Part shown: positions 2,529 through 31,189 of the stretch, piece by piece
Position numbering within the stretch: position 1 is the stretch's first letter
Layout of the letters: each line of letters starts with the position of its first letter
Assembly (NCBI RefSeq): GCF_004010195.1
Contig: NC_057752.1
Coordinates: 8,816,387-8,880,386, forward strand
Direction of reading: 5' to 3'
From: Chiloscyllium plagiosum
Lineage: Eukaryota
Length of the DNA: 64,000 nt
Made by a program: the position numbers and the translations under genes
Notes under the pieces: generated by a model
Databases searched by the model: none
What the model saw: the letters and a program-made list of their open reading frames with translations, nothing else
Told to the model about the DNA's origin: nothing

Positions 2529-2650
2529 CAGTAGCCATTTCTCTTTTCTCAGTCAACTTCTTAATCATCTCTGCCTGCCTCTCACACACAGATTTCAATC
2601 GTCTAAACTCCTGGTACAGCAGTTCAAATGTTTCTTCCATCTCCTTCAAA
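2529..2650 (-). CDS. Coding exon of a TANK-like adaptor (TBK1/IKKepsilon-binding helical domain)
   Basis: tttccattag acceptor and G|gtgagt donor; 122-nt open frame LKEMEETFELLYQEFRRLKSVCERQAEMIKKLTEKREMAT(+G); pattern resembles the TBK1-binding helix of TANK/AZI2/TBKBP1; ATG at 2638-2640 in GAGATGG context. Confidence 0.75.
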
Positions 2651-3560: not shown

Positions 3561-4043
3561 AAATCACTAGAAAAAGGCTCTGGTAAACTACTGGAACTCA
3601 ATGTTGACACGTTCCCTGGACCTTAGGACCTGGATTCTAGGGTCTTAAAAGAAGTTACTTCAAAGACTGTAGATGCATTGGTTATAACTCTCAAAGAATT
3701 CCTAGATTCTGGCTCAGCCATTGGTGGATTAGAAAATAGCAAACATTCAAGAAAGGAGGAAGACAGAAAGTCGAAACCTATAGGTTAGTTGGCCTAACAT
3801 CAGTCATAGGGAAAGTTCTAGAATCCATACAACCAGGCATATACAATATGGCTTTGTGAAAGGGAAATCAGGGCTGACTAATTGGAGTTTTTGAGGAAGC
3901 GAGTAACGGGGTACCTATAGAAGCAGTTGTAGTGATTAGATTGCAGTCAGCCAGGTGGACCTCACATAGAATACAAATTCCCTGACTGGACCAGATTACT
4001 AACCCCAATCGGGGAGCTCTGGCTGATAGATATAAACGGGGTG

Positions 4044-4968
4044 TGTTATGGACCGGGCCAGACCCCATCAAAATATTTTCGGAAGGCAGCCTCTACCCTA
4101 ACTTTTTCTTATTTTAAAAGCAGATGTGAAGTGGATGTTCCAGATGTGATGCGACTGGTCAAACCACTCGACTTTAAGAAAAATAGAGTTTATTTAAACA
4201 CTACAGTTGCAACACGAACAAAAGAAAACGGAATTTAGAATAACTTAACTATTGGAAAACTTAACCGACCCAATACAGCAATATAACCAAGGAGCCATTC
4301 CAATCCAGTAACATCCCATAAACACACCCCTTGGCAAAAAGGTAAATTGAAACACCAATTTTTACAGGTAGGAGAGAACAACGTCCAGAGAGATTTTTTT
4401 TTTAGATTTTTTTTAGATTACTTTACAGTGTGGAAACAGGCCCTTCGGCCCAACAAGTCCACACCGCCCCGCCGAAGCGCAAACCACCCATACATTTACC
4501 CCTTACCTAACACTATGGGCAATTTAGCATGGCCAATTCACCTGACCTGCACATCTTTGGCCTGTGGGAGGAAACCGGAGCACCCGGAGGAAACCCACGC
4601 AGACACGGGGAGAATGTGCAAACTCCACACAGTCAGTCGCCTGAGGCGGGAATTGAACCCGGATCTCTGGCGCTGCGAGGCAGCAGTGCTAACCACTGTG
4701 CCACCCACATGTCACCGTGCCGCCCACATGTCAGAGAGAAAGTCAGTCAGGGTTCATTAGATGAAGCTTGCAAACTTCCTGGACTCCAGCATCGTGTGGT
4801 TGCCACAACTAAACCAAACAAGAGAAAACCTGAACTGGGAGAGCTGGCCACTCCCCTGCCATTGTCAAACTAGGCTCTTTCTCGACCCCTCAGCACCTCT
4901 GCTTTTATGACCTCTCTTTAAAAAACCCAAGGACAAAATAACCTTGTTAAAGTGACAGCATTGTCACA
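4044..4968 (-). mobile_element. Solo LTR nested in the 5' LTR of Gypsy element 1 (contains a V-SINE)
   Basis: tgttat...tcaca termini; homologous to the solo LTR at 24524-25140; AATAAA on the minus strand near 4190. Confidence 0.8.
4395..4725 (-). mobile_element. HE1-like tRNA-derived V-SINE
   Basis: tRNA-like head with A/B boxes (gtggcacagtggttagc...gggttcaattccc), V-domain gtggagtttgcacattctccccgtgtctgcgtggg, CR1-like tail. Confidence 0.9.
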
Positions 4969-7800
4969 ACTTCCAGAGGTTCTGTTCACTCTAAGAGCTG
5001 GCTCTGAGGGAGCTGGATCAGTGTCAATGACTCTCCACATGGAAATAAAGGATAACTTGGTGACAGGATACTGGCCTCTGTGGAGTTATTTCAGGGGTGA
5101 CAAGAGAAAAACACGGTCCTGGAGAAATTCACTCGCAACAGTTGTCTTTGAGTTGGGGGTAAGCATTTCTGACATCCTGCTGTTATTTGGGAAGGTTGAC
5201 TCATTTGATCCAGCCATCGAAGACTGGGCCTAGCATATTGAAAGAATGTGTTATTTTTTCTGGGCAAATGACATGGTGCAGATTGAAAGCAATGCGGACT
5301 CGAGACAGCAAAAGAGTCCCATTAAGCCTGAACTGAGTAAGAGAACTATAGACTGGTTTCCCAGAGAGTGCACACTCTGGAAAGTCCACTTATGTGTGGG
5401 TTGGAAGAGTTAACTTGTTAAGCAATATCCAAATCCGAACCAATCAAAATAAACGTCTAGTTAAATGGTCACCGAGTTCTAATGGAGATTGATGCTGGTG
5501 CAGCTATAGTAGTGATCGCAGAATCAGTCTTTAACAAAATTCATTCTGGATTCCCAACCCTATTGTTTGTGCAAGACCACAGCTAGACTGAGAACCTATA
5601 CCAGGGAACTGTTACAGATGAAGGGTACAATTTCAGTTCCGGTCCCTTATGAGAAGCAGCTGGTTCAGTTCCCACTGATTGTAGTAAAAGGCTCAGGCCG
5701 AAGCTGGATGGGGTAGAATTGGTTGAGAAAGATTCAACTTGATTGGCTCAACATTTTCCAATTAGAAAATAGTTGCCTGAGTGACGTCCTAATTAAATAC
5801 CCAAAAGTTTTTTAAGAAGGTTGAGGGACTATCAAAGGAGCCAAGGCCACCTTATATGTTTCCCGGGAAGCAGTTCCATGATTCTGCAAGGCCTGCCCTG
5901 TGCCATTTGCCTTACGGGCAAAAGTAGAGGCAGAAATCAGGAGGCTGGAAAGGGAAGGAATCATCAAACCAATCCAGTTTGTGGAACGGGCAACACCAGT
6001 TGTATCGATTGTGAAGCCTGATGGGCTTTGTGGTGATTTTAAACAAACGGTAAGTGCTTTTCACAGCTGGATAAATATCCAAAGCCTCCTATAGGGGGTT
6101 TATATGCAAAACTGGCAGGGGTCCTGGTCTTCACAAAGCTGGACATGAGCCATGCATACTTGCAATTGCGGTTAGATGAGAATTCTCAAAGTATGCTACA
6201 AATAATACTCATAAAGGTTTGTCCCAACATATGAGACTGCCATTTGGGATATCATCAACCTGTGCCATTTTCCAGTGGGCAATGGAGAACATCTTACAAG
6301 GTCTACCCCAAGTCATTATTTATTTGGAGGATGTGCATAACAGGGAAGACCAATAAAGAACATTTAGAGAATTTGGACATAGTGCTTAAATGTTTTTCCC
6401 AGGAGAGTATATGCCTTGAGAGGGAAAAATATATGCTCCAGGCACACCAAGTGATCTACTTGGGCTACAGAGTTGACAAGACCAGGTTACACCCTTTGAA
6501 AGATAAAGTGAGGGCAATCAAAGGTGCCCCGATTCCCACATCTATACCAGAGCTTCGGTTTGAAAAAGGGCTAACCTTGTTTAAATGGTCACGTAGGCAA
6601 GACATAGCCTTTAGGGAAGTGAAGAAGCAGCTGTCATTGTCTAAGCTGTTGGCTCACTGTGATCCCAAGCAAGATCTGGTGCTGACATGTGATACTTCCC
6701 TGTAAAGTGCTGTGTTCGCTCACAGATGGCCCAATGGAGAGGAATGCCCGATAGCGTGTACCTCCTGGACTTTGGCTGATGCAGAGTGCAAATACAATGA
6801 GATACAGAAGGAAATTTTGGTGTGAGAATGTTCTACCAATACCTTTACGGATATAAATTTGTCATAGCAATGGACCACAAACCCCTGCTAGGGCTACTGA
6901 AAGAGGACAAGGCTGTGCCAACCATAGCTTCAGGTCGAATTCAGTGGTGGGCTCTCATTGAGTGCATACAATTACAAATTGGAACACTGTCCGTGAGGCC
7001 AAGTAGCAAATGCGATGCCTTGAGCCGCCTCTCACTGGCAGATACTTCACCAGTGTCGCTGCCACTGGAACAGTCCATTCTGGTTTAAACTTTCTGGACA
7101 TCCTTCCCGTTATTACTGACAATATCCGACTGTGGATACAAAAAGATCCGATCCTGGCAAAACTAAAACAGCTGGTGGTAATGAGGGAAACAAAAGGGCC
7201 GTCACAACCAGAAATGAAACCTTTCTGGACCTGGTGAGACCAGATCAGCATGAAGGGTGGCACATTATTATGTGGAGCAAGAGTGATTGTCCTTTGCAAA
7301 GGTAGCCGCCAGATACTGACTGAACTCCACCAGGGTTTCCAAAATGAAAATGTTGGGGAGACATTATGTCTGGTGGCCAGGGTTGGATGTTGACATAGCT
7401 GCATTGGTGTGGCAGTGCCCAGAGTGCCAATAAAGGAGAAGGATTATCGCCAGCAGCTCCCCCACACTCGTGGGAATGGCCAGGTAAATCCTGGACTCGG
7501 TTACGCATTGACTTTGCTGGTCCTTTCATGGGCTCTATGTTTTTAGTCATTGGGGACGCCCAATCAAAGTGGTTGGACATGCATAGAGTTCATTTGTCAA
7601 ACACAACGACATCTTTTGCAATGCACAGAGGCTCCCAGAAGTGTTGGTCACAGAAAATGGGCCACCATTAACCAGCAGGGAACTTGAGTATTTCCTAAAG
7701 TCAAATGGCATTCGACATGTAAGAACAGCTCCATACCATCCATCATGCAATGGTCTGGCAGAAAAAGCATTCCAAACTTTGAAAGCAGGCTTAAAAATAC

Positions 7801-8499
7801 TGAAGATCTAGACTCCCAGCGGGGTCTCTCGGTTCCACGATCGGTCAATAAATACTCGCAATTGGTCTGGCTTTTAAGACTTCATTTTTTATTTTTCATA
7901 TGGACAGGCACAGAACATCCAGAAGCACAAAAGTTATACATTTCCGTGTTCCTCAGAGGAGTTGTGTACATGGCTTAAAATATAGGTATTTTTATATTTT
8001 TCTCAAAGAAGGGTACAGGCCATGATCGCACAGTACATTCAAACAAATACCAATTAATACACAATACCACTTTATTTGACAGTTACTTGGTCCAATGATA
8101 TTTCCTGGGAACCAACTTTCTTTTCTAACACTCAGGCCACCCTTATCCCACTAACCGAGTCATTGCACCTGCAGCTGAAGTTCAGCTAGGAACGGCCAGT
8201 AATGTCTTATCTAGTCTAGTTATTTCTATGCTGTAAAGGGTGCATTGTTGGCTAATTTCTATTAAAGCAGACTGGTTACTCAATTATGCAGCTATAGCAG
8301 TATTAGAAGTAAGTAACTTTAAAAGCCATTTTATGCAGCTTTCGCAGAATTGTCAATTTGCAGCCTAGAAGCCATTTTGTCATATTATTTGCATCGAGAA
8401 GTCATTTTATTGCCGCCTAAGTTATTAAGAGCATCTGTTAAGTGGTTGTTCCTGACAACAACTAGTTACTTCAGCCTGTATTCAGGTTTCAGATCCTCA
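7801..8499 (-). mobile_element. Solo LTR (ERV1- or Gypsy-type) inserted in the Gypsy integrase
   Basis: TG...CA with short inverted termini tgaagatct/agatcctca; perfect 4-bp TSD atac; minus-strand TATA (about 7990) and AATAAA (about 7890). Confidence 0.85.
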
Positions 8500-9059
8500 A
8501 TACCAAACTGTCCCAGTTCCTATTTGATTATAAGAACACCCCTCATGCAACTACAGGGATAGCTCCAGCAGTTGATAATGGGGAGAATACTCCACCATTA
8601 AACCTGATCTTACAGACATGGGAAGGGAAATGGGTAAAATGGCATCAGGAACACCAATGCCAGGCACAAGACCCCTCTAAGCGGGAGAGGCAGTTTATTT
8701 CAGGGGACGAAGTTTAATGTCAAAATCACTGAAACAGCCCTGTGTGGTTAAAAGGCATGGTTGACACAAGGTCTGATCTCATGACATACAAAGTTTAGGT
8801 AGGTGAGGCAGTCCTGAACAGGCACATGGATCATGTGAATGCTGCAAATTCGTAAATGGAGCAGAAGAATAATATACGTGGCCCCTCAGAACAGCCTGAA
8901 AGGCTGTCAGAACCCATGAGTTCTGCACCTCTATCTTGTGTTGAGGAAACCTGAAGTCTCAACACTGTTACTGCCTGAAGGTGAATTTCAGTCAAGATGC
9001 TTTGGGCGTAACAGGTGGGTCCAGTACACACTGCTGGTATCCAAGGCAGAGTTGGCAGA

Positions 9060-10949
9060 GCTTCATGCTCTCACCCTGACCTGGAAAAATTCATAAACTT
9101 CGCTTCCAGTTTCCATCCCTCCATCACCTTCACCTGGCCCATCTCCGACACTTGCCATAAGACCATAAGACCATAAGACATAGGAGTGGAAGTAAGGCCA
9201 TTTGGCCCATCGAGTCCACTCCGCCATTCAATCATGGCTGATGGGCATTTCAACTCCACTTACCCGCATTCTCCCCGTGGCCCTTAATTCCTTGTGACAT
9301 CAAGAATTTATCAATCTCTCACTTGAAGACATTTAGCATCCCGGCCTCCACTGCACTCCGCGGCAATGAATTCCACAGACCCACCACTCTCTGGCTGAAG
9401 AAATGTCTCTGCATTTCTGTTCTGAATTGACCCCCTCTAATTCTAAGGCTGTGCCCACGGGTCCTAGTCTCCTCACATAACGGAAACAATTTCTTAGCGT
9501 CCACCCTTTCCAAGCCATACTTTCCTTGACCTTTCTGTCTCCATTTCCGGCAATAGTCTATCCACTAATGTCCATTACAAGCCCACTGACTCCCACAGCT
9601 ATCTGGACTACAGCTTTTCTCACCCTACGTCCTGTAAGGACTCTATCCCTTTCTCTCAGCTCCTTCGCCTCTGCCGCATTTGTTCCAATGAGGCCACTTT
9701 CCAAAGTGGTGCTCTTAATATGTGCTCCTTCTTCTCCAACCGTGGCTTCCCACCTACAGTTGTTGACAGGGCTCTCGACATCGTGCGGTCCATCTCATGC
9801 GCCACGACCCTCACCCCCTCCCTCCCCTCCCAGAACAAGGATAGGGTCCCTCTTGTTCTCACCTTTCACCCCACCAAGCTTCACATGCAAAGAATAATCC
9901 TCCGCCATTTCGCCAACTCCAACACGACGCCACCACTAATCACATCTTCCCTTCTCTCCGCCTGTCTGCATTCCGCAGAGATCATTCCCTCCGGGACAAC
10001 CTAACCCACTCGTCCATCACACCTAACACCTCTCCCATCATACACGGCACCTTCCCATGCAATCGCAGAAGGTGCAACACCTGCCCCTTTACCTCCTCCG
10101 TGCTCACCATCGAAGGCCCCAAACACTCATTTCAGATTAAGCAGCGTTTCACTTGTACCTCTTTCAATCTGGTCTATTGCATTCGTTGCTCCCAATGTGG
10201 TCTCCTCTATATCGGAGAGACAAAACGCCGACTGGGTGATCGCTTTGCTGAGCACCTTCGGTCTGTACGCAATCAGGTCCTGGACCTCCCTGTGGCTTGC
10301 CACTACAACACACAATCCTGCTCCCATGCCCACATGTCTGTCCTGGGCCTGCTGCAATGTTCCAGTGAAGCTCAACGCAAACTGGATGAACAGCATCTCA
10401 TCTTCTGACTAGGCACATTACAATCTGCCAGTCTCAACACTGAATTCAACAACTTCAGATGATTATCCCATCTTGACCCCTCTGTTTTCATTCTGCTCCG
10501 TAATTTTATTTCATTTATTTTAGTTTTTATTTTCACTGTTCTGTACCTCTTATTTCTTGATTGTCTCTCTTTCTCTCGCTCCCTACTCTCTCATCACCTT
10601 TTTCCTCTCCTCTTCCCTCTTTGCTACCCTTCTCCCCTGTTTTCCATTTTGCCTCTGCTTCACCCATCCCCCACATATTTTGTCACATAGCACTGGTTTC
10701 AGCCTTGGTCATTCACAGCTCCTAATCTCCCTATAATCTCTCTATGCACTGTCATTATCATCTCTTTATTGCTACCTTTGCTTCTGGAGCCATGACTCAC
10801 CTTCCCTCAGCCTCATATAAATACCTCCCTATTTCTCCCTTTTTTTAGCTTTGACAAAGGGTCAGTTGGACTCGAAACGTCAGCTCTTTTCTCACCTTAC
10901 AGATGCTGCTAGACCTGCTGAGATTTTCTAGCATTTTCTCTTTTGGTTT
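9060..10949 (+). mobile_element. 5'-truncated Penelope-like retroelement (RT C-terminus + GIY-YIG endonuclease)
   Basis: VYCIRCSQCGLLYIGETKRRLGDRFAEH GIY-YIG motif; 13-bp TSD cagagtt(g/a)gcaga; hammerhead-like motif near 10850-10885. Confidence 0.9.
9156..9517 (-). mobile_element. CR1 3' fragment nested in the Penelope-like element
   Basis: TRTRGHSLRIRGGQFRTE...WNSLP; (tcttatgg)n tail. Confidence 0.85.
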
Positions 10950-11160
10950 CAGAGTTAGCAGAACTAGACCTGGTACAAAAACGTCCCAGGAGAACATTAC
11001 AGGAAAAAGAACAGGCCTACGTTCCAGGACTTGGAGGGGGAGGGATGCAGTGATTATAATAAGGTCAGCCAGGTGGACCTCATAGAATGAGTTCCCTGAT
11101 TGGGGCTGTTAACCTGGTCCAATCAGGGAGCCCTGGCTGACAGATAAAAACTGGAGTGTC

Positions 11161-11274
11161 CCACACCTGCACACACACACCATGGGTGCTGGGGAAAAAA
11201 TAAGCACTACCGCACTTAGGTGGTAGTGTGGGGGAAAAAAAAGAAGAAGAAAAAACAACAAAAAAAAAATTAAA
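11161..11274 (+). mobile_element. Short A-tailed retroposed insert (probable Tx1/L1 3' tip) in the Gypsy 3' LTR
   Basis: Perfect 15-bp TSD aaaaactggagtgtc (11146-11160 / 11275-11289), A-rich tail, hairpin cactacc...ggtagtg; partial similarity to the 3' end of the Tx1 fragment at 26174-26775. Confidence 0.75.
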
Positions 11275-14200
11275 AAAAACTGGAGTGTCAGAGGTTCTGC
11301 TCATTCTGAGACATGGCTCTGAGGAAGTGGATTAGTGTCAAAGTCATAAAGGGTGACCTGGTGACAGGATACTGGCCTCTGTGGAGTTATTTCAGTGGTG
11401 TATTTGGATTTCCAAAAGACATTCATTAAGGTGCTGTTTAAAAGATGACACCACAAAATAAGAGCTAATTGTGTCAGGGGTGATGTGTTAGGAAGGATAG
11501 AGGACTGGCTAACTAACAGGAAGCAGACAGTTGAGATAAGTGGTTGTTTCATTTTGGCAGACTGTATTAGTGGAATGTAACAGGGATCAGTGATTAGGCA
11601 TTAGGTATCAATAACTTTGAAGGCATGAAATGTTTGGTCACTAAATTTACTGGTGATACACAGATGTGTAGGAAAGAAAGTTGGGAAGAGGACACAGAGT
11701 TTTGAAAGGGGATAACGTGATTAGGCATAAATTTGGCAGATGGAGTATGGTGTGGGTAAATGTGAGCTTGAATCACAAAGACTACAGTACATGTAGAGCA
11801 AGTAATTGGGAAGAAAACTGGAATGTTGACCTTTATTGCAAGATAAATGGAATATACAAGTAGAAAAGTGTTTCTACAGCTATAACAGGACTTAGAAGAA
11901 CTGCTTCTGGAGTACTATATCTGTACAATTCTGCAGGCTAAAGGTGTCAATGGAGTATGCCTTTGAATTAGAGGATCAGCTATAATCATGCTGAATGGCA
12001 GAGTGGGCTCAATGGGCTGAATGGCCTACTGCTGCTCCTATTTGCTATATTATGGAGGGATATAGTTGCATTGCAAGGTTAGCTCAGCTGATTATAAGAT
12101 TTAAGAAGCTGGCTTACGACAAAAGCTTGAGCAGGTTTGGCCTACACGTATTGAAGAGAACATTTCCTTTTTGCATATAAGTCTAGAACTAAGGACATGG
12201 CTTACAAATAAGACACTTCCCATTTAAATCGAAGATGATGGGAAATTTCATCTTTCATAAGGTCACTTGTCTTCGGAATTCACTACATCAGAAAGCAGAG
12301 GGAACTGCGTTGTAGTGAATATAATCCAAGGCTGAGTTAGACAGATTTTTGATTGGAGGGGATTTTTATCATCTAACTAAAGGAGAGACAAGTGAAAAAG
12401 GGCCACAGAAAAGATTAACTAATGGCAGAAATCAGAGATAGCCTTTTTTAGAACATGCACAAAGCTAAGTAAATGTTAGATCAGATTTGAGCATTCACTC
12501 CCCCTCGTATCCCACATACACTTATGTTCTGATGATCATTGTACCATTACAATACGGTTAGAGGTCAAATGTACAACATTTTATTTTTAGGAAAACACAT
12601 CTGTTGGATATTCCTTACACCAGTACCAGAAGGACATAAACATAGCTGAAAACTCAGTCTGGTTGGTATAGTGTTGCACATGAGCAGTGAAGTATCCCAT
12701 TGCACGTGCAAAGAATCATTAACTGTGGGAGACACTTACACCAGAATCCGATTAAAATTTCATTGTTAATTTGTTCTGCATAAAGTTGAAATTCATTTTG
12801 TAATTTGGTTGATATGGTTCTAGCAGAAAGTGAGGTAAACCTCAAACAAACAAACAGAAAATACTCAACAAGTCAGGCAGCATCTGTGAAGAGAAACAGA
12901 GTTAATATCTCAGATCACCAGAGGTAAACCTCACTGGTAACCTCCTACTCAAGGGGACCAGCAACCCACTTAACAGTCAAATATACTCCAAATTATCACA
13001 CTCTCTTTCAAACTGAATGTGTTGAATGGGTCTTTTTGTTCTATGGTGTGTCTGTCTACTTTAATGTGGATTTGTTATTTCTTGTATGGTGAATATTTAT
13101 TTTACTTGTTTTAAGATGAGTTCATTTGTGTTGCCTGAAGTCAATATTTAACAATGAATCTATTCACTTTATTCAGGTGGAGACACATGTTTTAAAGCAA
13201 ACAATTCCCTCCTGCCCCTCTCAGGCCAGAGAACCAATCTGAACATTCTAAACAAATGAGGTCTTGTTAAGTTGGATAACAAGGAAGTCTTCCACAAGTG
13301 ACCCTTGGTCAAATTGATCAGTGAAGTGTTGGCACAAATTAGATCGGTGTTTCCATGTATTTGATGATGCCCTAATGTTACTATTTTACTAAAGGTATAT
13401 AGGTAATCCAAGATGGAGGACGGGAAAAATTTCTGGCTGTAACAGCTGCTCCTTTATTGAGGTATTTTAGGTACTGGAGATGATTTCCTCAAATTCCAGG
13501 AGCAGCAATTACTGTTTTATATGCTGTTGCATTGTTTTGGAACTTTGAAAAAAAAAGTCAAAACAATAGCAGTTTTAAAAGGGAGAAGAACAAAGAAAGC
13601 ACATGTTGAGGTCAGTGCAGGAGAGAAAGAGAGAGAGAGAGAGAAAGAAACTGACACAGCAGTGAACCTGCACAGTAACTGCCTTTCCTGTTTGAATTCA
13701 TGTAATGCTGGACATCGGAGTGCATCTGGGAAAATTAACAAACAGTGAAATTCACAACTGATCTTGGAGGAACCGTTTGGGCGAAGTTCAGAGCACAGAA
13801 GTAGATAAGTGTATTGTTTTTAAGTGGGACCTACAGAACGTCTGCAGTAGTGAGTAGAGTGGGTTCATCCTTGATTATATGTTTTTTGAGACATGTCTCT
13901 TGATTAAACTTAAAATATAAGCCATAACTATTAATTTAACGTGGGGCAGTGTTTTGTAGAGGAATAAGACAATGTTATTTTCTGGGTCTGTAGATTGTGA
14001 AGGAGCAAAAATGGCCTTTAGTAGAGTGATATGTGCTTCTTGTCAGATGTGGGAGTTTAAAGAGAGTTGAAGGGTTACTGCAGATTATATCTGCAATAAA
14101 TGCTGTTGGTTGTGAATCTTATCAGATCGAATGGATCGGTTGGAGAGACAGTTAGAAGCAATGAGGAATTTGTAACAGCAACAGTATGTGATGGATAGCA

Positions 14201-16124
14201 GTTGTAGGAAGGGGGGGGGAAGTCTCAGATACAGTTACAGAGATGGGTTAACTCCAGAAAAGGTAAGAACGGTAGGCAGCTAGTGCAGGAGCCTTCTGTG
14301 GCTATACCCATTTCAAACAAGTATGCTGTTTTGGAAAATGTAGAGGGTGATGGATTCTCAGAGGAACGTAGCATGAACAGCCACGTTTCTGGTATTGAGA
14401 CCGGCTCTAATGCAATGAGGGGTACGTCGGGTTCCAAGAGATCAATTGTGTTATGGGACTCTCTAGTCCGAGGTACAGACAGACGTTTCTGTGGCCAGCA
14501 GCGAAAAATCAGAATGGTGTGTTACTTCCCTGGTGCCAGGATCAAGGCTGTTTCAGAGAGGATGCAGAATGTTCTCAAGGGGAGAAGGGCCAGCAAGACG
14601 TCATTGTCCACATTGGAACCAAAGACATAAGAAGGGAAAAGGTTGAGATTCTGAAGGGAGATTACAGAAAGTTAGGCAGAAATTTAAAAAGGAGGTCCTC
14701 GAGATAGTAATATCTGGATTACTCCCGGTGCTACGAGCTAGTGAGGGCAGGATTAGGAGGACAGAGCAGATGAATGCATGGTGGAGGAGTTGGTGTATGG
14801 GAGAAGGATTCACATTTTTGGATCATTGGAATCTCTTTTGGGGTAGAAGTGACCTGTACAAGAAGGACGGATTGCACCTAAATTGGAAGTGGACTAATAT
14901 ACTGGCAGAGAAATTTGCTAGAACTGCTCGGGAGGATTTAAACTAGTAAGGTGGGGGGGGATCCCAGGGAGATAGTGAGGAAAGAGATCAATCTGAGACT
15001 GGTACAGTTGAAAACAGAAGTGAATCAGTCAGGGCAGGCAGGGACAAGGTAGGACTAATAAATTAAATTGCATTTATTTCAATGCAAGGGGCCTTACTGG
15101 GAAGGCAGATGAACTCAGGGCATGGTTAGGAACATGGGACTGGGATATTATAACAATTACAGAAACATGGCTCAAGGATGGGCAGGACTGGCAGCTTAAG
15201 GTTCCAGGATACAAATGCTACAGGAAGGATAGAAAGGGAGGCAAGAGAGGAGGGGGAGTGGCATTTTTGATAAGGGATAGCATTACAGCTGTGCTGATGG
15301 AGGATATTCCCGGAAATACATCCAGGGAAGTTATTTGGGTGGAACTGAGAAATAAGAAAGGGATGATTGCGATTGTATTATAGACCCCCTAATAGTCAGA
15401 GGGAAATTGAGAAACAAACTTGTGAGGAGATCTCAGATATCTGTAAGAATAATAGGGTGATTATAGTAGGGGATTTTAACTTTCTGACTGGGACTGCCAC
15501 AGTGTTAAGGGTTTAGATGGAGAGAAATTTAAGTGTGCACAAGAAATTTTTCTGATTCAGTATGTGGATGTATCTACTAGAGAAGGTGCAAAACTTGACC
15601 TACTCTTGGGAAATAAGGCAGGGCAGGTGACTGAGGTGTCAGTGGGGGAGCACTTTGGGGCCAGCAACCATAATTCTATTAGATTTTAAATAGTGATGGA
15701 AAAGGATCGACCAGATCTAAAAGTTGAAGTTCTAAATTGGAGCAAGGTATTAGGCAAGAACTTTCAAAAACTGATTGGAGGCAGATGTTCGCAGGTAAAG
15801 GGACGGCTGGAAAATGGGAACCCTTCAGAAATGAGATAACGAGAATCCAGAGAAAGTATATTCCTGTTTGGGTGAAAGGAAAGGCTGGTAGATACAGGGA
15901 ATGCTGGATGACTAAGAAATTGAGGGTTTGGTTAAGAAAAAGAAGGAAACATATGTAAGGTATGGACAGGATAGATCGAGTGAATCCTTAGAGTATAAAG
16001 GAAGTAGGAGTATACTTAAGAGGGAAATCAGGACGGGCAAAAAGGAGACGTGAGATAGCTTTGGAAAATAGAATTAAGGAGAATCCAAAGGGTTTTTACA
16101 AATACATTAAGGACAAAAGGGTAA

Positions 16125-18407
16125 GGGTGTAGGTTTGCTCGCTGAGCTGTAGGTTTGATATCCAGACATTTCATTACCTGGCTAGGTAACATCATTAGTG
16201 GCGACCTCCAAGTGAAGCGAAGCTGTTGTCTCCTGCTTTCTATTTATATCTTTCTCCTGGATGGGGTTCCTGAGGTTTGTGGTGATGTAATTTCCTGTTC
16301 ATTTTCTGATGGGTTGATAGATGGCATCTAGATCTATGTGTTTGTTTATGGCGTTGTGGTTGGAGTGCCAGGCCTCTAGGAATTCTCTGGCATGTCTTTG
16401 TTTAGCCTGTTCCAGGATAGATGTGTTGTCCCAGTCGAAATGGTGATTTTTTTAACCATGCATAGGGCTACGAGGCAGAGAGGGTCGTGTCTTTTTGTGG
16501 CTANNNNNNNNNNNNNNNNNNNNNNNNNNNNNNNNNNNNNNNNNNNNNNNNNNNNNNNNNNNNNNNNNNNNNNNNNNNNNNNNNNNNNNNNNNNNNNNNN
16601 NNNNNNNNNNNNNNNNNNNNNNNNNNNNNNNNNNNNNNNNNNNNNNNNNNNNNNNNNNNNNNNNNNNNNNNNNNNNNNNNNNNNNNNNNNNNNNNNNNNN
16701 NNNNNNNNNNNNNNNNNNNNNNNNNNNNNNNNNNNNNNNNNNNNNNNNNNNNNNNNNNNNNNNNNNNNNNNNNNNNNNNNNNNNNNNNNNNNNNNNNNNN
16801 NNNNNNNNNNNNNNNNNNNNNNNNNNNNNNNNNNNNNNNNNNNNNNNNNNNNNNNNNNNNNNNNNNNNNNNNNNNNNNNNNNNNNNNNNNNNNNNNNNNN
16901 NNNNNNNNNNNNNNNNNNNNNNNNNNNNNNNNNNNNNNNNNNNNNNNNNNNNNNNNNNNNNNNNNNNNNNNNNNNNNNNNNNNNNNNNNNNNNNNNNNNN
17001 NNNNNNNNNNNNNNNNNNNNNNNNNNNNNNNNNNNNNNNNNNNNNNNNNNNNNNNNNNNNNNNNNNNNNNNNNNNNNNNNNNNNNNNNNNNNNNNNNNNN
17101 NNNNNNNNNNNNNNNNNNNNNNNNNNNNNNNNNNNNNNNNNNNNNNNNNNNNNNNNNNNNNNNNNNNNNNNNNNNNNNNNNNNNNNNNNNNNNNNNNNNN
17201 NNNNNNNNNNNNNNNNNNNNNNNNNNNNNNNNNNNNNNNNNNNNNNNNNNNNNNNNNNNNNNNNNNNNNNNNNNNNNNNNNNNNNNNNNNNNNNNNNNNN
17301 NNNNNNNNNNNNNNNNNNNNNNNNNNNNNNNNNNNNNNNNNNNNNNNNNNNNNNNNNNNNNNNNNNNNNNNNNNNNNNNNNNNNNNNNNNNNNNNNNNNN
17401 NNNNNNNNNNNNNNNNNNNNNNNNNNNNNNNNNNNNNNNNNAACCGACAACAAACTCGCATTCCTGGACGTCACAGTCTGAAGAAAGGACAACGGAGAAC
17501 TACAAACCAGCGTATACAGAAAACCGACAAACACTGACTAAATACTTAACTACACCAGCAACCATCCCAACACACACAACCGAAGCTGTATCAGAACACT
17601 ATTCCAACGAGCCACCACACACTGCAGCACAGACGAACTTCAGAAAACAGAGGAGAACCACCTATACAACGTATTCAAGAAGAACGGATACTCAAAAAAA
17701 ACTATAGTGCGCAGATTCCTCAAGAACAAACCACGACAAGCAGATCAAACACAGCCAGAAACCCTAACCACCTTACCATACATCAAAGAAGTTTCAGAAA
17801 TGACAGCCAGACAACTAAGACCCCTCAGAATCCGAATAGCACACAAACCCACCAACACTCTCAAACAAAATCCAACAAACTTAAAAGACCCAGTACAACC
17901 CATGGACAAAACCAACGTCATCGACAAAATTCCATGCAAGGACTGCCACAAACACTACGTAGGACAAACAGGAAGAAAGTTAGCCACCAGGATATACAAA
18001 CACTAGCAAGCTACAAAAAGACACGACCCTCTCTTCCTCGTAGCCCTACACATGGATGAAAAAAAAACACCATTTCGACTGGGACAACACATCTATCGTG
18101 GGACAGGCTGAGCAAAGACATGTCAGAGAATTCCTAGAGGCCTGGCAATCCAACCACAAAGCCATAAACAAGCACATAGATCGAGATGCCATCTATCAAC
18201 CCCTCAGAAAACGAACAGGAAATTACATCACCACAAACCCCAGGAACCCCATCCAGGAGAAAGTTATAAATAGAAAGCAGGAGACAACAGCTTCGCTTCA
18301 CTTGGAGGTCGCCACTGATTATGTTACCTAGCCAGGTAATGAAATGTCTGGATATCAAACCTACACCCTAAACCTCAACCTGAGCTACAAACCTTCACAA
18401 ACCTTGC
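16125..18407 (+). mobile_element. Penelope (Poseidon-like) element with inverted 5' pseudo-LTR, nested in CR1 ORF2
   Basis: 12-bp TSD acaaaagggtaa (16113-16124 / 18408-18419); GIY-YIG IPCKDCHKHYVGQTGRKLATR; 16125-16503 is the reverse complement of about 18010-18370. Confidence 0.9.
16504..17441. other. Assembly gap (N run)
   Basis: Ns. Confidence 1.
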
Positions 18408-20199
18408 ACAAAAGGGTAACTAGGGAGAGAATAGGGCCCCTCAAAGATCAGCATGCCGGCTTTTGTGTGGAGCTGCAGAAAATGGGGGAGATACTAAACG
18501 AGTATTTTGCATCAGTATTTACTGTGCAAAAGGATTTGGAAGATATAGAAAGTAGTGAAATAGATGGTGACATCTTGCAAAATGTCCATATTACAGAGGA
18601 GGAAGTGCTGGATGTCTTGAAATGGGTAGAGGTGGATAAATCCCCAGGACTTGATCAGGTGTACTCTAGAACTCTGTGGGAAGCTAGAGGAGTGATCGCT
18701 GGGCCTCTTGCTGAGATATTTGTATCATCGATAGTCACAGGTGAAGTGCCAGAAGACAGGAGGTTGGCTAACGTGGTGCCACTGTTTAAGAAGGGTGGTA
18801 AGGACAAGCCAGGGAACTATAGACCAGTGAGCCTGACGTCGGTAGTGGGCAAGTTGTTCGAGGGAATCCTGAGGGACAGGATGTACCTGTATTTGGAAAG
18901 GCAAGGACTGATCAGGGATAGTCAACACGGCTTTGTGTAGGGGAAATCATGTCTCTCAAACTTGATTGAGGTTTTTGAAGAAGTAACAAAGAGGACTGAT
19001 GAGGGCAGAGTGGTAGATGTGATTTATATGGACTTCAGTAAGGCGTTCCACAAGGTTCCACATGGGAGACTGATTAGCAAGGTTAGATCTCATGGAATAC
19101 AGGGAGAAGTAGCCATTTGGATACAGAACTGACTCAAAGGTAGAAGACAGAGGGTGGTGGTGGAAGGTTGTTTTTCAGACTGGAGGCCTGTGACCAGTGG
19201 AGTGCCACAAGGATCGGTGCTGGGTCCTCTACTTTTTGTCATTTACATAAATTATTTGGATGCAAGCATAAGAGGTACCGTTAGGAAGTTTGCTGATGAC
19301 ACCAAAATTGGAGGTGTAGTGGACAGCGAAGAAGGTTTCCTCAGATTACAACAGGATCTTGATCAGATGGGCCAATGGGCTGAGAAGTGGCAGAAGGAGT
19401 TTAATTCAGATAAATGTGAGGTGCTGCATTTTGGGAAAGCAAATCTTAGCAGGACTTATACACTTAATGGTAAGGTCCTAGGGAGTGTTGCTGAACAAAG
19501 AGACCTTGGAGTGCAGGTTCATAGCTCCTTGAAAGTGGAGTCGCAGGTAGATAGGATAGTGAAGAAGGCGTTTGGTATGCTTTCTTTTATTGGTACAGGA
19601 GTTGGGAGGTCATGTTGAGGCTGTACATGACATTGGTTAGGCCACTGTTAGAATATTGCGTGCAATTCTGATCTCCTTCCTATCGGAAAGATGTTGTGAA
19701 ACTTGAAAGGGTTCACAAAAGATTTGCAATGATGTTGCCAGGGTTGGAGGATTTGAGCTATAGAGAGAGGCTGAACAGGCTGAGGCTGTTTTCCCTGGAG
19801 CGTTGAGGCTGAGGTGTGACCTTATAAAGGTTTACAAAATTATGTGGGGCATGGATAGAATAAATAGACAAAGTCTTTTCCCTGGGGTGGGGGAGTCCAG
19901 AACTAGAGGGCATAGGTTTAGGGTGAGAGGGGAAAGATATAAAAGGGACCTAAGGGGCAATGTTTTCACGCAGCGAGTGGTACGTGTATGGAATGAGCTG
20001 CCAGAGGAAGTGGTGGGGACAGCTACAATTGCAACATTTAAAAGGCATTTGGATGGGTATATGAATAGGAAGGGTTTGGAGGGATATGGGCCGGGTGCTG
20101 GCAGGTGGGACTAGATTGGGTTGGGATTTCTGGTCGGCATGGACAGGTTGGACCGATGGGTCTGTTTCCATGCTGTACATCTCTATGACTTTATAACTC

Positions 20200-20362
20200 T
20201 ACTGCAGATGCTGGAAATCTGAAACAGAGAAATGCTGGAGAAACTCGGCAGGTCTAGCTGCATCTGTGGAGAGAAAAACAGAGTTAATGTTTCAAGGCTG
20301 ATATGACCGCTTCAGAAGAGTTTTTTCTCACTACAGATGCTATTAATCCTACTGAGTTGGAA
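20200..20362. mobile_element. Short Penelope-derived terminal fragment with inverted copy
   Basis: ctgcagatgctggaaatctgaa...catctgtggagagaaaaa followed by the inverted ttttctcactacagatgct. Confidence 0.6.
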
Positions 20363-21576: not shown

Positions 21577-21850
21577 GGGCGACATGGTGGCACAGTGGTT
21601 AGCACTGCTGCCTCACAGCGCCAGAGACCTGGGTTCAATTCCCGCCTCGGGCAACTGTTTGTGTAGAGTTTGCACATTGTCTGCGTGGGTTTTCTCCGGT
21701 TTCCTCCCACAGTCCAAAAATGTGGAGGTTAGGTGAATTGTCCATAGTGTTAGTTGTAGGGGAATGGGTCTGGGTGGGTTGCTCTTCGGAGGGCCAGTGT
21801 GGACTTGTTGGGCTGAAGTGCCTGTTTCCACACTGTAAGTAATCTAATTT
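21577..21850 (+). mobile_element. HE1-like V-SINE
   Basis: tRNA head, V-domain, tail; aaattaa flanks. Confidence 0.88.
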
Positions 21851-23999: not shown

Positions 24000-24078
24000 C
24001 TGAAAATATGAATGTTTGCCATTGCCTTTCCGCCATCATCCCTTTAAGTAACATTCCCCAATCTATCATAGCCAACAT

Positions 24079-24428
24079 CACAGAATCCCTACAGTATGGA
24101 AACAGGCCATTTGACCCAACAAATCCACATTGACCGTCCGAAGCATAACCCACGCAGACCCATTTCCCTCCCCTATTGCTCTACATTTACCCCTGACTAA
24201 TGCACATAACCTACACATCCCTGAACACTATGGGCATATTAGCATGGTCAATTCACCTAACTTGCACATGTTTGGACTGTGGGAGGAAATTGGAGCACCC
24301 CGAGGAAACCCACACAGACACAGGGAGAATGTGCAAACTCCACACAGACAGTTGCCGGAGGCTGGAATTGAGCCCGGGTCCCTGGTGCTGTGAGGCAACA
24401 GTGCTAACCACTGAGCCACCGTGCCACC
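24079..24428 (-). mobile_element. HE1-like V-SINE
   Basis: Reverse-complement tRNA head and V-domain. Confidence 0.88.
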
Positions 24429-24523
24429 TCATACCATCATAGTTTCCACTGTTTAGATTCATGACCTGAGTTGCATAATCAACTATGTTACTGTCCATCT
24501 TGATGAGGAATTCTATTATATTA

Positions 24524-25140
24524 TGTTATAGACCAGGCCAGACCCCTTGAAAACATTTCAAGAAGGCAGCCCAGCCCCTGCCTTTTCTAGTTGTATTTAG
24601 CAGAAAGAGTGGATATTCCAGGAGTGATGCAGCTGGCCCAACCACTCCGTTTTAAACAAAACAGAATTTATTTATACACGAGCAAAAGAGAACAGAACAT
24701 GGAATAACATAACATATCTGAAAACTCCATCAACTCTATCACAACTTAATGATGCTGTTCCAAATACTTGCAACATCCCCATAAACACCCCCTTGGCAAA
24801 CAAAAGGTAAAATTAAACACAGGTTCTGACAGGAGAGATGTCAGAGAGAGAGGGGATCAGCTCAGAACTGCTTCTTTGGGTCAAGCAGCTTCTCTGGATT
24901 CCCAGCTAAAACCTGACCAGCAGCTGTAAACAAACAGCCAGACTGCTAAACCCAAACCAAACTAAACCCTGAACTATGAGAAACTGGCCACTCCCCTTTC
25001 ATTGTACAAGTGTTTTTAAAAAACTCTTGAAAGGCTTCTCAAGTAGATTTTTCCAGACATACCGGAACCTCTGCCTTTAAGATCCCTTGAAAACAAAACC
25101 AAGCACAACATAACCTTGTTAAAGGCGCAGCATCATCACA
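24524..25140 (-). mobile_element. Solo LTR, same family as 4044-4968
   Basis: tgttat...tcaca termini; near TSD atta/gtta; collinear similarity to 4044-4968. Confidence 0.82.
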
Positions 25141-25149
25141 GTTATGGTC

Positions 25150-26030: not shown

Positions 26031-26173
26031 TGGCACTTAAAATAACCCCACAAAGGCCAGTATCCCATCACCAAGTGACCCTTTATTTACACGTGCATAG
26101 TACTTGACATGGACCCAACTAGCTCAGAGCCAGCTCCTAGAATGAGCAGAACCCCTAACACGCCTGCTAATAT

Positions 26174-26228
26174 TTTTCATCCTTTTTTTCTCTTTTATTC
26201 TATATCTTCCCCAACTCACTCATGGCTC

Positions 26229-26265
<37 letters not shown>

Positions 26266-26775
26266 TTGCAAAAACTTTATTCTATCTTTTCCACCACCAG
26301 GAAAACACCTCTGTGGCTAGTGAAACATTAACAAACAAAGCTTGATAAGGACAAAGCTTACATCAAAGGGTAAAAGGGATGAGGGTGAGGAAGGGAGAGT
26401 AAGAGGGGACTAAATCAAAATACTGTTGGAGGGGGAAATAAAGCACTCCTCACCCCGTGGTGCCCACTTCTCCCTAAAGGCATTGAGAGCATTGGCAGGC
26501 ACCACATTTCCTTCTCCAGGGACACCCGGGCTCAAACGTAACCATGGCAGAGGGGGCAGGCAGTCAGCAGAGATGACCCCCTCCACAGCCCGCTGCCTGG
26601 ACCCGTTTATGGCTAGCTTTGCTAGGCCCAGGAGCAGACCCACGAGGAGATCCTCCGATCTGCCTGGGTACCCACTCGAGTGGGGCTGATGTACAACCAA
26701 AAGCAAAACAGAAGACCTTTCAGGTAACTAAAAAGGGGAAGCAAATGCCCACAACCGATATATAAATGGTCCATG
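26174..26775 (-). mobile_element. Tx1/L1-clade non-LTR retrotransposon 3' fragment inside the Gypsy 3' LTR
   Basis: ORF2 C-terminus LLVGLLLGLAKLAI..SR...FREKW; 3' UTR with AATAAA, (TA)n(CA)n and A-rich tail; decayed TSD 26157-26173 / 26776-26792. Confidence 0.75.
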
Positions 26776-29700
26776 GATACTCCTGTTTATTTCTGTCAGC
26801 TAGGACTTCCTGATTGGACCAGATTAACAGCCCTATTCAGAGAACTCATACTCTGAGATCCACCTGGCTGATCTGGTTCCAATCACTATATCCCTTCCCT
26901 CTGAGTCTGGGGACACAGGCCTCTTCTTTGTCTTGTAGCTTCTCCTGGGGTGTTTTTGTATTAGGTCCAGTTCCTCAGATTCTACCTCGGATACTGGCAG
27001 TGTACACCGAACCGTGACCCGTCTCTTGCACCCCGAGTACCATGGTCCAAAGTCATCTTCTTCTGCAGCTGGCATTGAGATTGTGACGTCTGCCGTGTCT
27101 ATCTCGTCCTCAGAGGCTTCTTTGACACTCGCCAGAAGAGAGAATACATAGGTTCTGACAGCCTTGCCAGATGTTCGCGGGGCCAGGTATGTTTTTCTCC
27201 CACCCTATTTGCAGGTTTGCAGTTTTCATGTGTTCCATGTGCTTACTTAGGAACACCTCTCCTACCTGAACTTTGTACATCACGGGACCTCACATTGGCC
27301 ATGTGTCTTACCTGTGCAGGGCCATTCCTGTGGTTCCTATACCAAACTTCGTCCCCTGAAGTAGGCTACTTCTCTCGCTTAGTGGTGTCTTGTGTCTGAT
27401 AATCACATCCTTGATGCAATTTCACCTTCCCCTACCAAGTCTAGGACGATCAGATTTAACCTCCCCATTAGCAACCCTGCTGGAGCTATCCCTGTAGTTG
27501 CGTGAGGGGTGGTCCTACGATCAAATAGGAACCAGAACAGTTTGGTAACATGTGATGCTGTAGGCTGTTTCATTAAGCCAGCCTTCAAAGTTCAGACAGT
27601 GCTTTCCACCAGACCATTGGACAATGAATGGTATACAGGTGTCATTACATGCTAAATGGCATTCAACCTCAGGAAATACTCAAATTCTCTGCTAATAAAT
27701 GATGGCCTCTTATATGTGACCAACACCTCCGGGAGTCTGTGTATTAAAAAAGATGCTCACAAATTTTCAAGTGTTGCCTCTGTGTTTGATGAATGAACTG
27801 TATGCACATCCAACCACTTTGAGTGGGTGTCCACAATGACTAAATAATAGAGTCCATGAAAGGACCTGCAACATGTAACCGAGTCCAGGATTTACCCAGC
27901 CATTCCCATGAACATGGGGGAACTGCTGATGGTAATGTTTGTCCTTGTTGGCCTTCTGTGCACTGCCCCACCAATGTGATTACATCTGCATCCAATCCTG
28001 GCCACCAGACATAACTTCTCGCTAATATCTTCACTGGATAACCCTGGTAGAGTTCAGCCAGTATGTTGTCCTCCACTGTGATACGTCCCGTTGGGTCCAA
28101 AAAGGTTTCAATTCTACTTGTGATGGCCCTTTTGTTTCCCCCATCACCTTCAGCAGTTTTGTTTTGCCAGGCAGCCACCATCTGATACTTTTATCGGTGA
28201 CTGGAAGGGTGTGCAGAAAGTTGAAAACCTGAACGGACTATTCTAGTGGCAGCACCACTGGTTGTGCATCTGCCAGTGGGAGGTGGCTCAAGGCATCCAC
28301 GTTTGCTACGTGACCTCCCAGATGGTGTTCCAACATGTCATTGTATGCACTTAGAATGAAAGCACACTGCTGAATTCATCTTCAAGCTATGAGACTCCTA
28401 AAGTAGCCCGAGCAGTGGTTTGTGGTCTGTTGCCATTACAAGTTTACATCTGTAAAGATATTGGTGGAACTTTCTCACACCAATGATGACTGCCAAACCT
28501 TGTTTCTCTTCTTTTGGCAACAGCCAAAATCGGGGAAGTATAAGCTATTGGGCGTTCCTCTCCGCTGGGCTAACACTATCTGATATTGTACGGGGAAGCA
28601 TTGCATGTCATCACCAGATCTTGCCTGGGATCATAGTGTGCCAAGATCTTCGACGACAATAGCTTCTTCTTCACTAAAGGCTACATTTGGGCTACGAGAT
28701 TGTTTCAAAGGCTAACCCTTTTTCATTAGCAGATGTAAGGGTAATAGGATGAACATCAGTTTATGTATGAATTTTCTATAATAATTCACCAACCTAAGGA
28801 AAGACCTAAGCTGTGGTACAGACGTGGAGGCCAGGGCACCTTTGATCACACTCATTTTATCCTCCAACAGGTGTAACCTGGTCTTGTCAACTCTGTAACC
28901 CAAGTAGGTCTCTTGGGGTGCTTGGAACACACCTTTTTCCCTCCGGAGGTGTATACCCACCTTGGAGAAATGTTGAAGCATTATGTCCAAGTTCTCTAAA
29001 TGTTCTTTTTTAGTCTTCCTGGTTTTCAGCACGTCACCTCAATAAATGGCAACCTGGGGTAAACCTTGTAAGATGTTCTCCATGGTCCACTGGAAAATGG
29101 CACAGGATGACGATACCCCAAATGGCAGTCTCACATATTGGTACAAACCCTTATGGGTATTCATTGTAGCATACTTCTGGGAATCCTCATCTAATCGCAA
29201 TTGCAGGTATGCATGGCTCATGTCCAGCTTTATGAAGGACAGCTGCCCTGCCAGATTTGCGTTAAGTCCTCTATGCAAGGGATTGGGTATTTATCCAACT
29301 GCAAAAAGCAGTTTCCTGTTATTTAAAATCCTCACAAAGGCGAACCGACCCAATGGGGCTTCACAATCGGTATGACAGGTGCTGCCCATTCCACAAACTA
29401 CACTGGTTGGATGATTCCTTCACTTTCCAGCCCCTGATTTCTGCCTCTACTTTCATAAGGCAGATGGCACTGCGCAGGTCTCGCAGAATCATGGAATTGC
29501 TTCCTGGTCAACATGCCAGGTGGCCTTGGCTCCTTTGATAGTCCCTCAACCTTCCTGATAAATTTCCAGGTATTTAGTTAGGCATTCACTCAGGTAGACA
29601 TTTTCTAATCAAAACACGTTGGGATAATCAAGGTGAATCTTTCTCAACCAATTCTGCCCCATCCAGCTTGGGCCTGAGCCTTTTACTACAATCAGTGGGA

Positions 29701-30604
29701 ACTGAGCCAGCTGCTTCTCATAAGGGACCAGAACTGAACTTGTACTCTTAATCTGTAAAGGTTCCCCGGTATAGGTTTTTCAGCTTGTCTGAGGTCTTGC
29801 ACATGCTGAAGAATTGGAGTCCAGAGTAAATTTTGGTGAAGTTCCGCAATCACTGAAACAGCCACTCCAGTCAAGCAGCATCAGAGAAACCTAGACCTGA
29901 AACGTTAACTCCCCTGCTCCCCTGAAGCTGCTTGATCTGCTGTACTTTTTGCAGCTCCATGCTTTATCAATTGCACATCATTAATCCCACATACCAAACA
30001 GTCTCTCAGCACTTCATTAAGGGTTAAACCAAAATCACAAGCCTTTGCCAGTAGTCTTAACCTCATCAAAAATTCTGATGGATTCTCCTGGTTCTCGAAG
30101 TGCCAAATAAAACCAATCACGTCTCAAAATTGGGGGAGGCTTGGGGTGGTAATATTCCTCAGCTAAATCAGTCAACTCTTGAAAGGTTTTAGTATCTCGT
30201 GCCTCAGGGAAATGTTAGGCTTCTAACAACCACAAAAGCTGTGGATCCACAAGTGGTCAGGAGAATTACTAAATTGCTTTTTATCTGCCTCAGTGTCATT
30301 TGCCCAGAGAAAACCTCATTCTTTCCACATACTAGACCCAGTCTTCAACAGCAGGATCAAACAAGTCAAGCTTCCCAAATAGCAGCATGATACCAGAAAT
30401 GCTTACCCCAATTCCAAGATGATTGTTGAAGCGAATGTTTTCAGGGATATGTATTCCTTTCATCGCCACTGGAAATACCTCCATGAAGGCCGATATCCTG
30501 TCACCAAGTCAGCCTTTATCTACACGTGCACAGTACATGACACTGACCCAGCTAGCACAGAGTCAGCTCCTAGAGTGAACAGAACCCCGCACATTCCTGT
30601 TTAT

Positions 30605-31029
30605 TTCTTTTCTTTCCCTTTTTTAGGAAGTGACAATGGAAATTGAAGAGGTACTGGCCAGAAACTTTAAGTCTTCCTTTGTCTCAGAGGTGATGTCACC
30701 TGACTGCAGAATCTGAACACGTTACATCCTTGCTCAAAACATTTTGCTGGGCTCAACCTAGCAATTACAGATCAGTTAATTGGACTAACAGGCACATGAA
30801 GAAATGTAGATCCATTAGAGTGAGCTGGCATGACTTCTTAAGGGACAATCGCATTTCATTAATTCATCTGCAAGGACTATGTATCATTCTATTTTGAAAT
30901 TTAAATGGTAAAATGGAGGAATGGACTGCTCCAATGTGGAGAATGAACCATATAATCAAAGGGACAGTGGAAAATATGTGGGTGTTCTTCTATTAGTTAC
31001 ACAAGAGCCCTGAAATAACTGCACAGAAA
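30605..31029 (-). mobile_element. A-tailed retroposed passenger sequence inside the Gypsy 5' LTR
   Basis: Decayed TSD cacattcctgtttat / gatactccagtttgt; minus-strand A-rich tail; body resembles an old CR1 ORF2 piece in antisense. Confidence 0.6.
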
Positions 31030-31189
31030 GATACTCCAGTTTGTATCTGTCAGCCAGGGCTCCCTGACTGGACCAGATTAACAGCCCCAATCAGGGAACT
31101 CATATTCTTTGAGATCCACCTGGTTAACCTCGTCACAATCACTGCAGATACTTTCTGGAGTTGAACATTACTCATTTTCTGGGTTCACG

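Follow-up and report, generated by a model that had tools for sequence, protein, structure and literature searches.

Several long interspersed elements (LINEs) of the Tx1 clade are known to be target-specific, such as Mutsu (5S) and Dewa (tRNA spacers). Further targets are given in Kojima 2015 (PMC4494074), of which we use here the passages dealing with Tx1 families and their insertion sites: Tx1L inserts in the piggyBac-type transposon Tx1D, Keno in U2 genes, Kibi and Koshi in microsatellites, Tx1-Mar in a Mariner element and Tx1-9_AMi in Harbinger elements. Closest to the case presented in this work are crocodilian Tx1 families preferring LTR (long terminal repeat) retrotransposons, to which one sentence of the same article is devoted. 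Here we analysed a stretch of 64,000 nt (the window) from Chiloscyllium plagiosum, located at positions 8,816,387-8,880,386 of contig NC_057752.1 (GCF_004010195.1), together with the 3.56-Gb genome assembly to which it belongs, and our results indicate that a Tx1-clade LINE family very probably inserts site-specifically into the LTR of one family of Gypsy-type retrotransposons.

As in the crocodilian case, a Tx1-clade LINE has an LTR retrotransposon as its preferred target. The host, however, is a shark-type fish, and the insertions form stacks on a defined site of 13-20 bp, located where the Gypsy LTR has its TATA-like box. The likeness to Tx1L in Tx1D of Xenopus laevis concerns the reverse transcriptase (RT), which is 71% identical, the endonuclease, which is of the apurinic/apyrimidinic (APE) type in both, and the use of a single site within another transposon. 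On the other hand, the passages on Tx1L in Kojima 2015 and Repanas 2007 (PMC1950540) describe a target that is a piggyBac-type DNA transposon and not a Gypsy LTR, and the AGTT reported in the latter downstream of the Tx1L nick differs from the site found here. Keno, Kibi and Koshi, according to the same passages of Kojima 2015, are also target-specific members of the clade, but they are directed at RNA genes or simple repeats rather than at an LTR promoter. Publications on Tx1 in connection with shark, cartilaginous or LTR insertion gave no account of this case; for the crocodilian LTR targets the comparison covers the passages of Kojima 2015 named above and not its supplementary details.

The insertion site in the target LTRs

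The window contains two decayed LTR retrotransposons, element 1 (3928-11400, plus strand) and element 2 (26040-31146, minus strand), whose four LTRs align over about 240 bp once the inserts are removed (Table 1). In this alignment all four LTRs are interrupted at the same column, just after ATAAAC(A/T)GGAGTGT(C), which from now on we call the motif. A preliminary description of the window, made from its sequence, had already placed the four interruptions at one site, and its insert coordinates are correct within about 2 nt. It had also reported that three of the inserts (2, 3 and 4) have an A-rich tail, a duplication of the motif and the orientation of the LTR, and that no such L1-type inserts were found elsewhere in the window. 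The former statement holds, and BLAST of a near-full LINE copy detected the family solely inside these LTRs. BLAST of the LTR halves against the whole window returned no further LTR copy.

Inserts 2 and 3 are copies of one LINE family. Insert 2 has a long A-rich tail and is flanked by a 15/15 target duplication (aaaaactggagtgtc); in the LINE sample described below, 20 of 29 non-self loci have family 3' ends to which it is 80-99% identical. In one of the sampled loci, L006, the order is LTR left half, LINE 3' end, A-rich tail, motif, second LINE 3' end and LTR right half, and this arrangement shows insert 2 to be the final ~110 nt of the LINE family to which insert 3 also belongs. Insert 3 is 74% identical over 391 nt to the ORF2 (second open reading frame) end and 3' untranslated region (UTR) of a near-full copy (L031 7467-7856). 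Its 105-aa ORF has no Pfam match, and its similarity to the C-terminus of Xenopus Tx1L ORF2 (20/67, E 0.11) is weak and not significant alone. Most family copies extend upstream of the start of insert 3 into ORF2, hence insert 3 is a 5'-truncated copy. The target duplications of inserts 3 and 4 are decayed, with about 8 of 13 and about 9 of 13 matching positions, respectively. Insert 4 probably represents an RNA retroposed in trans. Among 17 candidates in the genome none but insert 4 itself spans more than ~160 nt, and the search of the own genome yielded weak partial matches only and no source gene.

Insert 1 is something else. It shows no readable terminal repeats, motif duplication or A-tail, and its repeat has fixed ends (start ttatggacc.ggccagacccc, end ...catcatcaca or a variant) which are found again in other copies, at 24524-25140 of the window and at 518-1188 of locus L030, neither of them inside an LTR. 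The Tx1 mechanism, which the preliminary description had proposed for the interruptions of the LTRs, does not explain this insert.

To look at the same site in the rest of the genome, the left half of LTR2 was used as the only query, which gave 2014 candidates; our LTR sample consists of the best of these, 30 loci in all. Nineteen of these LTRs are uninterrupted and carry the motif natively, while the remaining 11 are interrupted, all of them directly after AAAC(A/T)GGAGTGT(C). The Tx1 family is present in nine of the 11, with nine different 5' ends and always in LTR orientation; three hold a second retroposon family and two have tail-only inserts. Nearly all of the 5' junctions directly follow GTGT or GTGTC. 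The right halves of the sampled LTRs, which were not selected for, showed no insertion bounded on two sides, and four of them stop early.

This pattern might also arise if one or a few ancient insertions had been multiplied together with the LTR, through retrotransposition of the Gypsy element, gene conversion or segmental or tandem duplication, in which case the copies would not represent independent hits. Such an origin would fit the 5' junction shared by two copies in L010, the common LINE position at which insert 3 and the first copy of L006 begin, and the clustering of tails (for example 7 in 3.5 kb on C1). However, nine LTRs with nine different truncation points are hard to reconcile with copying, the two LTRs of each window element carry different inserts, the spacing inside clusters is variable and most sampled LTRs are still empty. 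Moreover, the common start of insert 3 and L006 copy 1 is explained by the GGAGT that the motif shares with the LINE sequence gtGGAGTccatgg, both 5' junctions being microhomology junctions. We consequently regard copying with the LTR as very improbable.

The LINE family and its targets in the genome

A near-full copy of the family, about 6.4 kb long (L031 and L019), lies within an LTR at the motif and encodes an endonuclease domain (Exo_endo_phos, PF03372, E 2.9e-10, in L031:3350-4873) and an RT domain (RVT_1, E 9.3e-29); the two pieces of ORF that precede ORF2 in L031 gave no match in Pfam. The RT is identical to that of Xenopus Tx1L ORF2 ("Transposon TX1 149 kDa protein") at 165 of 234 positions, other named matches include "Transposon TX1 uncharacterized protein", and the match to human L1 ORF2p reaches 102 bits only. 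The Tx1 assignment made in the preliminary description agrees, on the basis of similarity, with this result and with the presence of the APE domain. On translation, the junction sequences of family copies give ...NCLFCGAVESVDHVYIGCG... immediately before the point where insert 3 starts, corresponding to a Cys/His knuckle near the ORF2 C-terminus, and such a knuckle is typical of the Tx1 clade. The APE/linker region is more distant, with 205 of 447 positions (46%) identical to Tx1L residues 21-466, and the loop VRVRDGHVS of Tx1L is replaced by VRP---GVGAS in the one natural, broken copy compared. In Repanas 2007 this hairpin loop is treated as a DNA-contacting element.

Concerning the 5' end, both near-full copies (L031:1608-1720; L036, minus strand, ~6680-6540) open with a piece of the family's own ORF2 end/3' UTR, and the internal junction at which this piece passes into the remaining 5' region is identical in L031 and L036; from these two starts it looks as if a mosaic 5' end is inherited within the family. 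The 5' region of these copies also has a stretch resembling the LTR, which was considered and discarded as not significant (local alignment score 24, shuffle maximum 27).

Insert 3 as a query against the assembly gave 3391 first-look candidates, and the LINE sample was picked solely by likeness to this insert. LTR halves were found at no more than 1.5 kb in 13 of the 29 loci. In order to read the flanks, tails were anchored at the hairpin, since LINE ends defined by BLAST (13/34 with motif) proved unsound, the alignments stopping within the tails and swallowing the motif. With this procedure the motif, allowing at most one mismatch, occurs within 80 nt after 12 of the 20 tails, compared with 4.1% of random 80-nt windows, and two further tails run into the LTR right half with a mutated motif. 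We then counted exact patterns in the whole genome, using the reversed patterns as controls. The tail anchor GGYGGTAGTGTGGGGG has 5790 matches (control 15), and 900 of them are followed after 3-33 nt by the exact 8-mer AACAGGAG (control 0, about 3 estimated by chance); a second tail pattern followed by AAACAGGAG has 706 matches (control 0). The proposal that a Tx1 family targets this site of the Gypsy LTR thus finds support in the LTR sample, in the LINE sample and in the genome-wide enrichment, and the hallmarks of a target-specific LINE are present: one site, one orientation, variable 5' truncation and a target duplication.

We also considered whether a generic preference of L1 type for T/A-rich sequence could be responsible, the TATA box of the LTR being merely the best TT/AAAA-like site in a short, GC-richer repeat. 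Indeed the duplication begins with AAAC or AAAA after T, as at L1 sites, and one off-target copy landed at ttAAACTGCTCTGG. Nevertheless 14 of the 20 sampled tails are in LTR context, even though this LTR family makes up only a minute fraction of the 3.56 Gb; the excess of the 8-mer after tails, 900 against about 3, goes in the same direction, and junctions after GTGT or GTGTC nearly throughout would not be expected from a loose A/T preference. This explanation is largely refuted already, and we judge it extremely improbable.

The same judgement applies to the hypothesis that the AAACAGGAG motif is no target, but the LINE's own 3' end carried by its RNA. The small number of motif-bearing tails that continue directly with the LTR right half (29/900) could be taken in its favor. 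However, the motif is native to the uninterrupted LTRs, it is also present upstream of the 5' junctions, and hence it is a duplicated target; in addition, the off-target copy in L013 has no motif between its tail and its own duplication. A read-through RNA bearing a downstream copy of the target is possible, and it would be a homing aid rather than an alternative to insertion at a target.

Several observations nevertheless weigh against site-specific insertion by a Tx1-clade LINE, or restrict it. Only the minority of tails just mentioned continue exactly with TGTCAGAGG, the beginning of the LTR right half; we attribute the low count to stacks following the motif and to LTR variants just after it, both as seen in the samples, where TGTCAGAGG was read in just 3 of 11 uninterrupted LTRs with exact AACAGGAG. 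The exact 8-mer is absent nearby in 4890 of the 5790 anchors, a number from which the share of off-target Tx1 copies cannot be read. Six of the 20 sampled tails show no LTR context, and the full copy L036/L013 clearly lies off-target, flanked by a separate duplication, aaactgctctgg, that has the AAAC(T)G start alone in common with the LTR motif; the family is therefore strongly preferential, not absolute, in its choice. Insert 1 sits at this very junction and yet bears no sign of retroposition. Part of the stacks may have arisen by duplication rather than by fresh insertion, as the junction shared by the two L010 copies suggests. The LTR sample is biased towards copies most similar to the left half of LTR2, so that insertions in left halves were not sampled without bias. 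Finally, membership of the clade is a matter of RT phylogeny (Kapitonov 2009, quoted after Kojima 2015), whereas our putative placement in it follows similarity and not a tree including L1 and other clades.

Features of the window

Between the LTRs of element 1 the pol remnants follow the order RT, RNase H and integrase (RVT_1, RT_RNaseH_2, RT_RNaseH and rve), and in element 2, read on the minus strand, RVT_1 is upstream of Integrase_H2C2; across both elements most of these matches are below the Pfam cut-offs. The RT fragment of element 2 has 154 homologue matches, those listed being 55-83% identical and including long proteins with RVT_1, RT_RNaseH_2, RT_RNaseH, Integrase_H2C2 and rve, under names such as "K02A2.6-like" and "Gypsy retrotransposon integrase-like". 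This domain order and these RT matches support the preliminary description in assigning the target elements to Gypsy, and we retain the label "Gypsy-type" on these grounds. A homologue search with the RT/RNase H piece of element 1 gave one uninformative match, and Pfam analysis of the ORFs flanking the sampled LTR copies gave just three RVT_1 matches, of no aid to classification.

Over aligned positions, LTR1 and LTR2 are 86.9% identical, LTR3 and LTR4 82.4%, and pairs across the elements 78-83.5%; such low values indicate that both elements are old. LTR3 and LTR4 are taken as the pair of one element, LTR similarity by itself being no proof of it.

Table 1. Target elements and their inserts, in window coordinates
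Feature	Position	Strand	Description
LTR1 left part (5' LTR, element 1)	3928..4045	+	ends in motif atataaacggggtgtg
Insert 1	4044..4968	+	unclassified ~620-bp dispersed repeat with nested tRNA-type short interspersed element (SINE; ~4402-4705)
LTR1 right part	4974..5099	+	begins cagaggttctg
Element 1 interior	5100..11036	+	decayed pol remnants, order RT, RNase H, integrase
Element 1 RVT_1	6180-6353	+	E 0.0044, below Pfam cut-off
Element 1 RT_RNaseH_2	6235-6705	+	below Pfam cut-off
Element 1 RT_RNaseH	6801-7088	+	below Pfam cut-off
Element 1 rve	7587-7808	+	below Pfam cut-off
LTR2 left part (3' LTR, element 1)	11037..11160	+	motif aaaaactggagtgtc at 11146-11160
Insert 2	11161..11274	+	extreme 3' end of (putative) Tx1-clade LINE family: hairpin region and A-rich tail
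LTR2 right part	11275..11400	+	opens with second motif copy, 11275-11289
LTR3 right part (3' LTR, element 2)	26040..26173	-	opens with decayed motif copy
Insert 3	26174..26775	-	5'-truncated (putative) Tx1-clade LINE: ORF2 end from CCHC knuckle, 3' UTR, A-rich tail
LTR3 left part	26776..26905	-	ends in aaataaacaggagtatc
Element 2 interior	26906..30465	-	Gypsy-type pol remnants
Element 2 Integrase_H2C2	27840-28190	-	weak match
Element 2 RVT_1	29042-29290	-	44.1 bits, above 29.6 cut-off
LTR4 right part (5' LTR, element 2)	30466..30604	-	opens with decayed motif copy
Insert 4	30605..31029	-	low-copy sequence, A-rich tail, decayed motif duplication
LTR4 left part	31030..31146	-	ends in atacaaactggagtatc

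Inside element 1, at 9845-10408 on the plus strand, a weak GIY-YIG match (E 0.00026, below the cut-off) possibly marks a Penelope-like fragment. One tRNA-type SINE, the same that is nested in insert 1 (4402-4705), has further copies at 21586-21847, 24224-24420 and 37208-37516, with a mutual identity of 79-93%. A large repeated block is composed of several collinear pieces (14848-20200 and 36334-39408, 88-97% identical), and at ~16504-17500 there is a run of N (a gap or a masked stretch), which accounts for the low GC content and the long "ORFs" in all frames there.

Stacks, a proposed mechanism and its meaning

At several loci (L003, L006, L010, L026, L052, L060 and L061) inserts are stacked at the site or share it with guest sequences. 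The second retroposon family (L052, L060 and L061) has a different 3' end, ...cccttgtaaaattgctgtt...tgtttaataaaataaa, and uses the same LTR site; genome-wide, AACAGGAG is found 50-80 nt after 129 of its 555 exact anchors (controls 0). In L026 a complete 5S rRNA (1138-1257, minus strand; Rfam 5S_rRNA, 48 bits, positions 1-120 of 120) sits exactly between two motif copies, downstream of a Tx1 tail and without an A-tail of its own. In L003 a unit headed by tRNA-Met (2490-2640, minus strand; Rfam 54.4 bits, ARAGORN anticodon CAT), with a 3' extension of ~50 nt and an A-tail, sits between two motif copies within the stack. Tails were also seen in clusters of up to seven Tx1 tails in 3.5 kb, irregularly spaced (e.g. 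C1:10431221-10434743), which look like large stacks at single target sites.

A comparable situation is the crocodilian Tx1-Mar/SINEU system, in which multiple retroposon families and units derived from small RNAs are found at one transposon target; the passage on it in Kojima 2015 interprets this sharing as mobilisation in trans, carried out by the enzyme of Tx1. In that system Mariner-N4_AMi is the target, with SINEs headed by U1 or U2 as guests, whereas here the target is a Gypsy LTR and the guests are a 5S rRNA, a tRNA-Met unit, a second retroposon family and tail-only inserts. Most likely these guests, too, were mobilised in trans by the same or a related enzyme, and the low-copy insert 4 of the window probably belongs with them.

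A mechanism can be proposed by analogy with other APE-type LINEs. The ORF2 endonuclease would nick the bottom strand, either inside the TATA-like box (gaTATAAAC) or a little upstream of it, the exposed T-rich 3' end would prime reverse transcription on the A-rich tail of the LINE RNA, and the top strand would then be cut after GGAGTGT or GGAGTGTC. The product seen in the sequence is a sense-oriented, usually 5'-truncated insert between duplications of 13-20 bp, (ATAT)AAAC(A/T)GGAGTGT(C). Because of the A-rich tails, many of which end in ...ATATAAACAGGAG, the duplication has no sharp left boundary, and L043 duplicates from ATAT onward; these two features suggest a nick upstream of the TATA letters. 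Since the duplication contains the recognised sequence, the site is regenerated by each insertion and struck again, giving stacked inserts. The site itself, the orientation, the duplications, the stacking, the identity of the family and the enrichment across the genome are thus read directly from the sequence. The order and position of the nicks, the part of the protein that would read the target, the mobilisation in trans and the effect on the LTR promoter are all suggested by the anatomy of the inserts.

After an insertion an intact TATAAA and ~10 nt remain upstream of the insert and the R region is displaced, from which the split between promoter and R region put forward in the preliminary description would follow. 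It is conceivable, but in our opinion rather unlikely, that the site was chosen for this promoter, the U3 of the Gypsy element driving full-length Tx1 copies and the stacks acting as a shared pad for a guild of retroposed RNAs made up of Tx1, the second family, and units derived from 5S and tRNA. The near-full copies opening with a piece of their own 3' UTR give a hint in this sense, that is, that master transcripts may start inside an upstream member of the stack. As for RNA, 1479 reads of one poly(A) single-cell run (X8) match the family, mainly in 3'-UTR-like parts and in sense orientation, and none came from a second run (X9); the X8 reads could originate from any of the thousands of copies within other transcripts, they mark no transcript start and say nothing on the promoter.

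Elements of this kind are already known from frogs and crocodilians, so that the LINE family described here, clearly a new example, extends current knowledge without overturning it. It provides a clean natural example, in high copy number, of a vertebrate LINE of APE type whose DNA target is long and well defined, and a single genome contains several thousand tails and several hundred exact junctions, along with target sites in the empty and in the filled state. Such cases are raw material for understanding how LINE endonucleases read sequence. With its RT 71% and its endonuclease region 46% identical to those of Tx1L, and with a different target, the family forms together with Tx1L a natural pair for mapping the determinants of specificity. 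Cases of this sort illustrate, in addition, how a mobile element can make its living on a second one and leave the genes of the host untouched.

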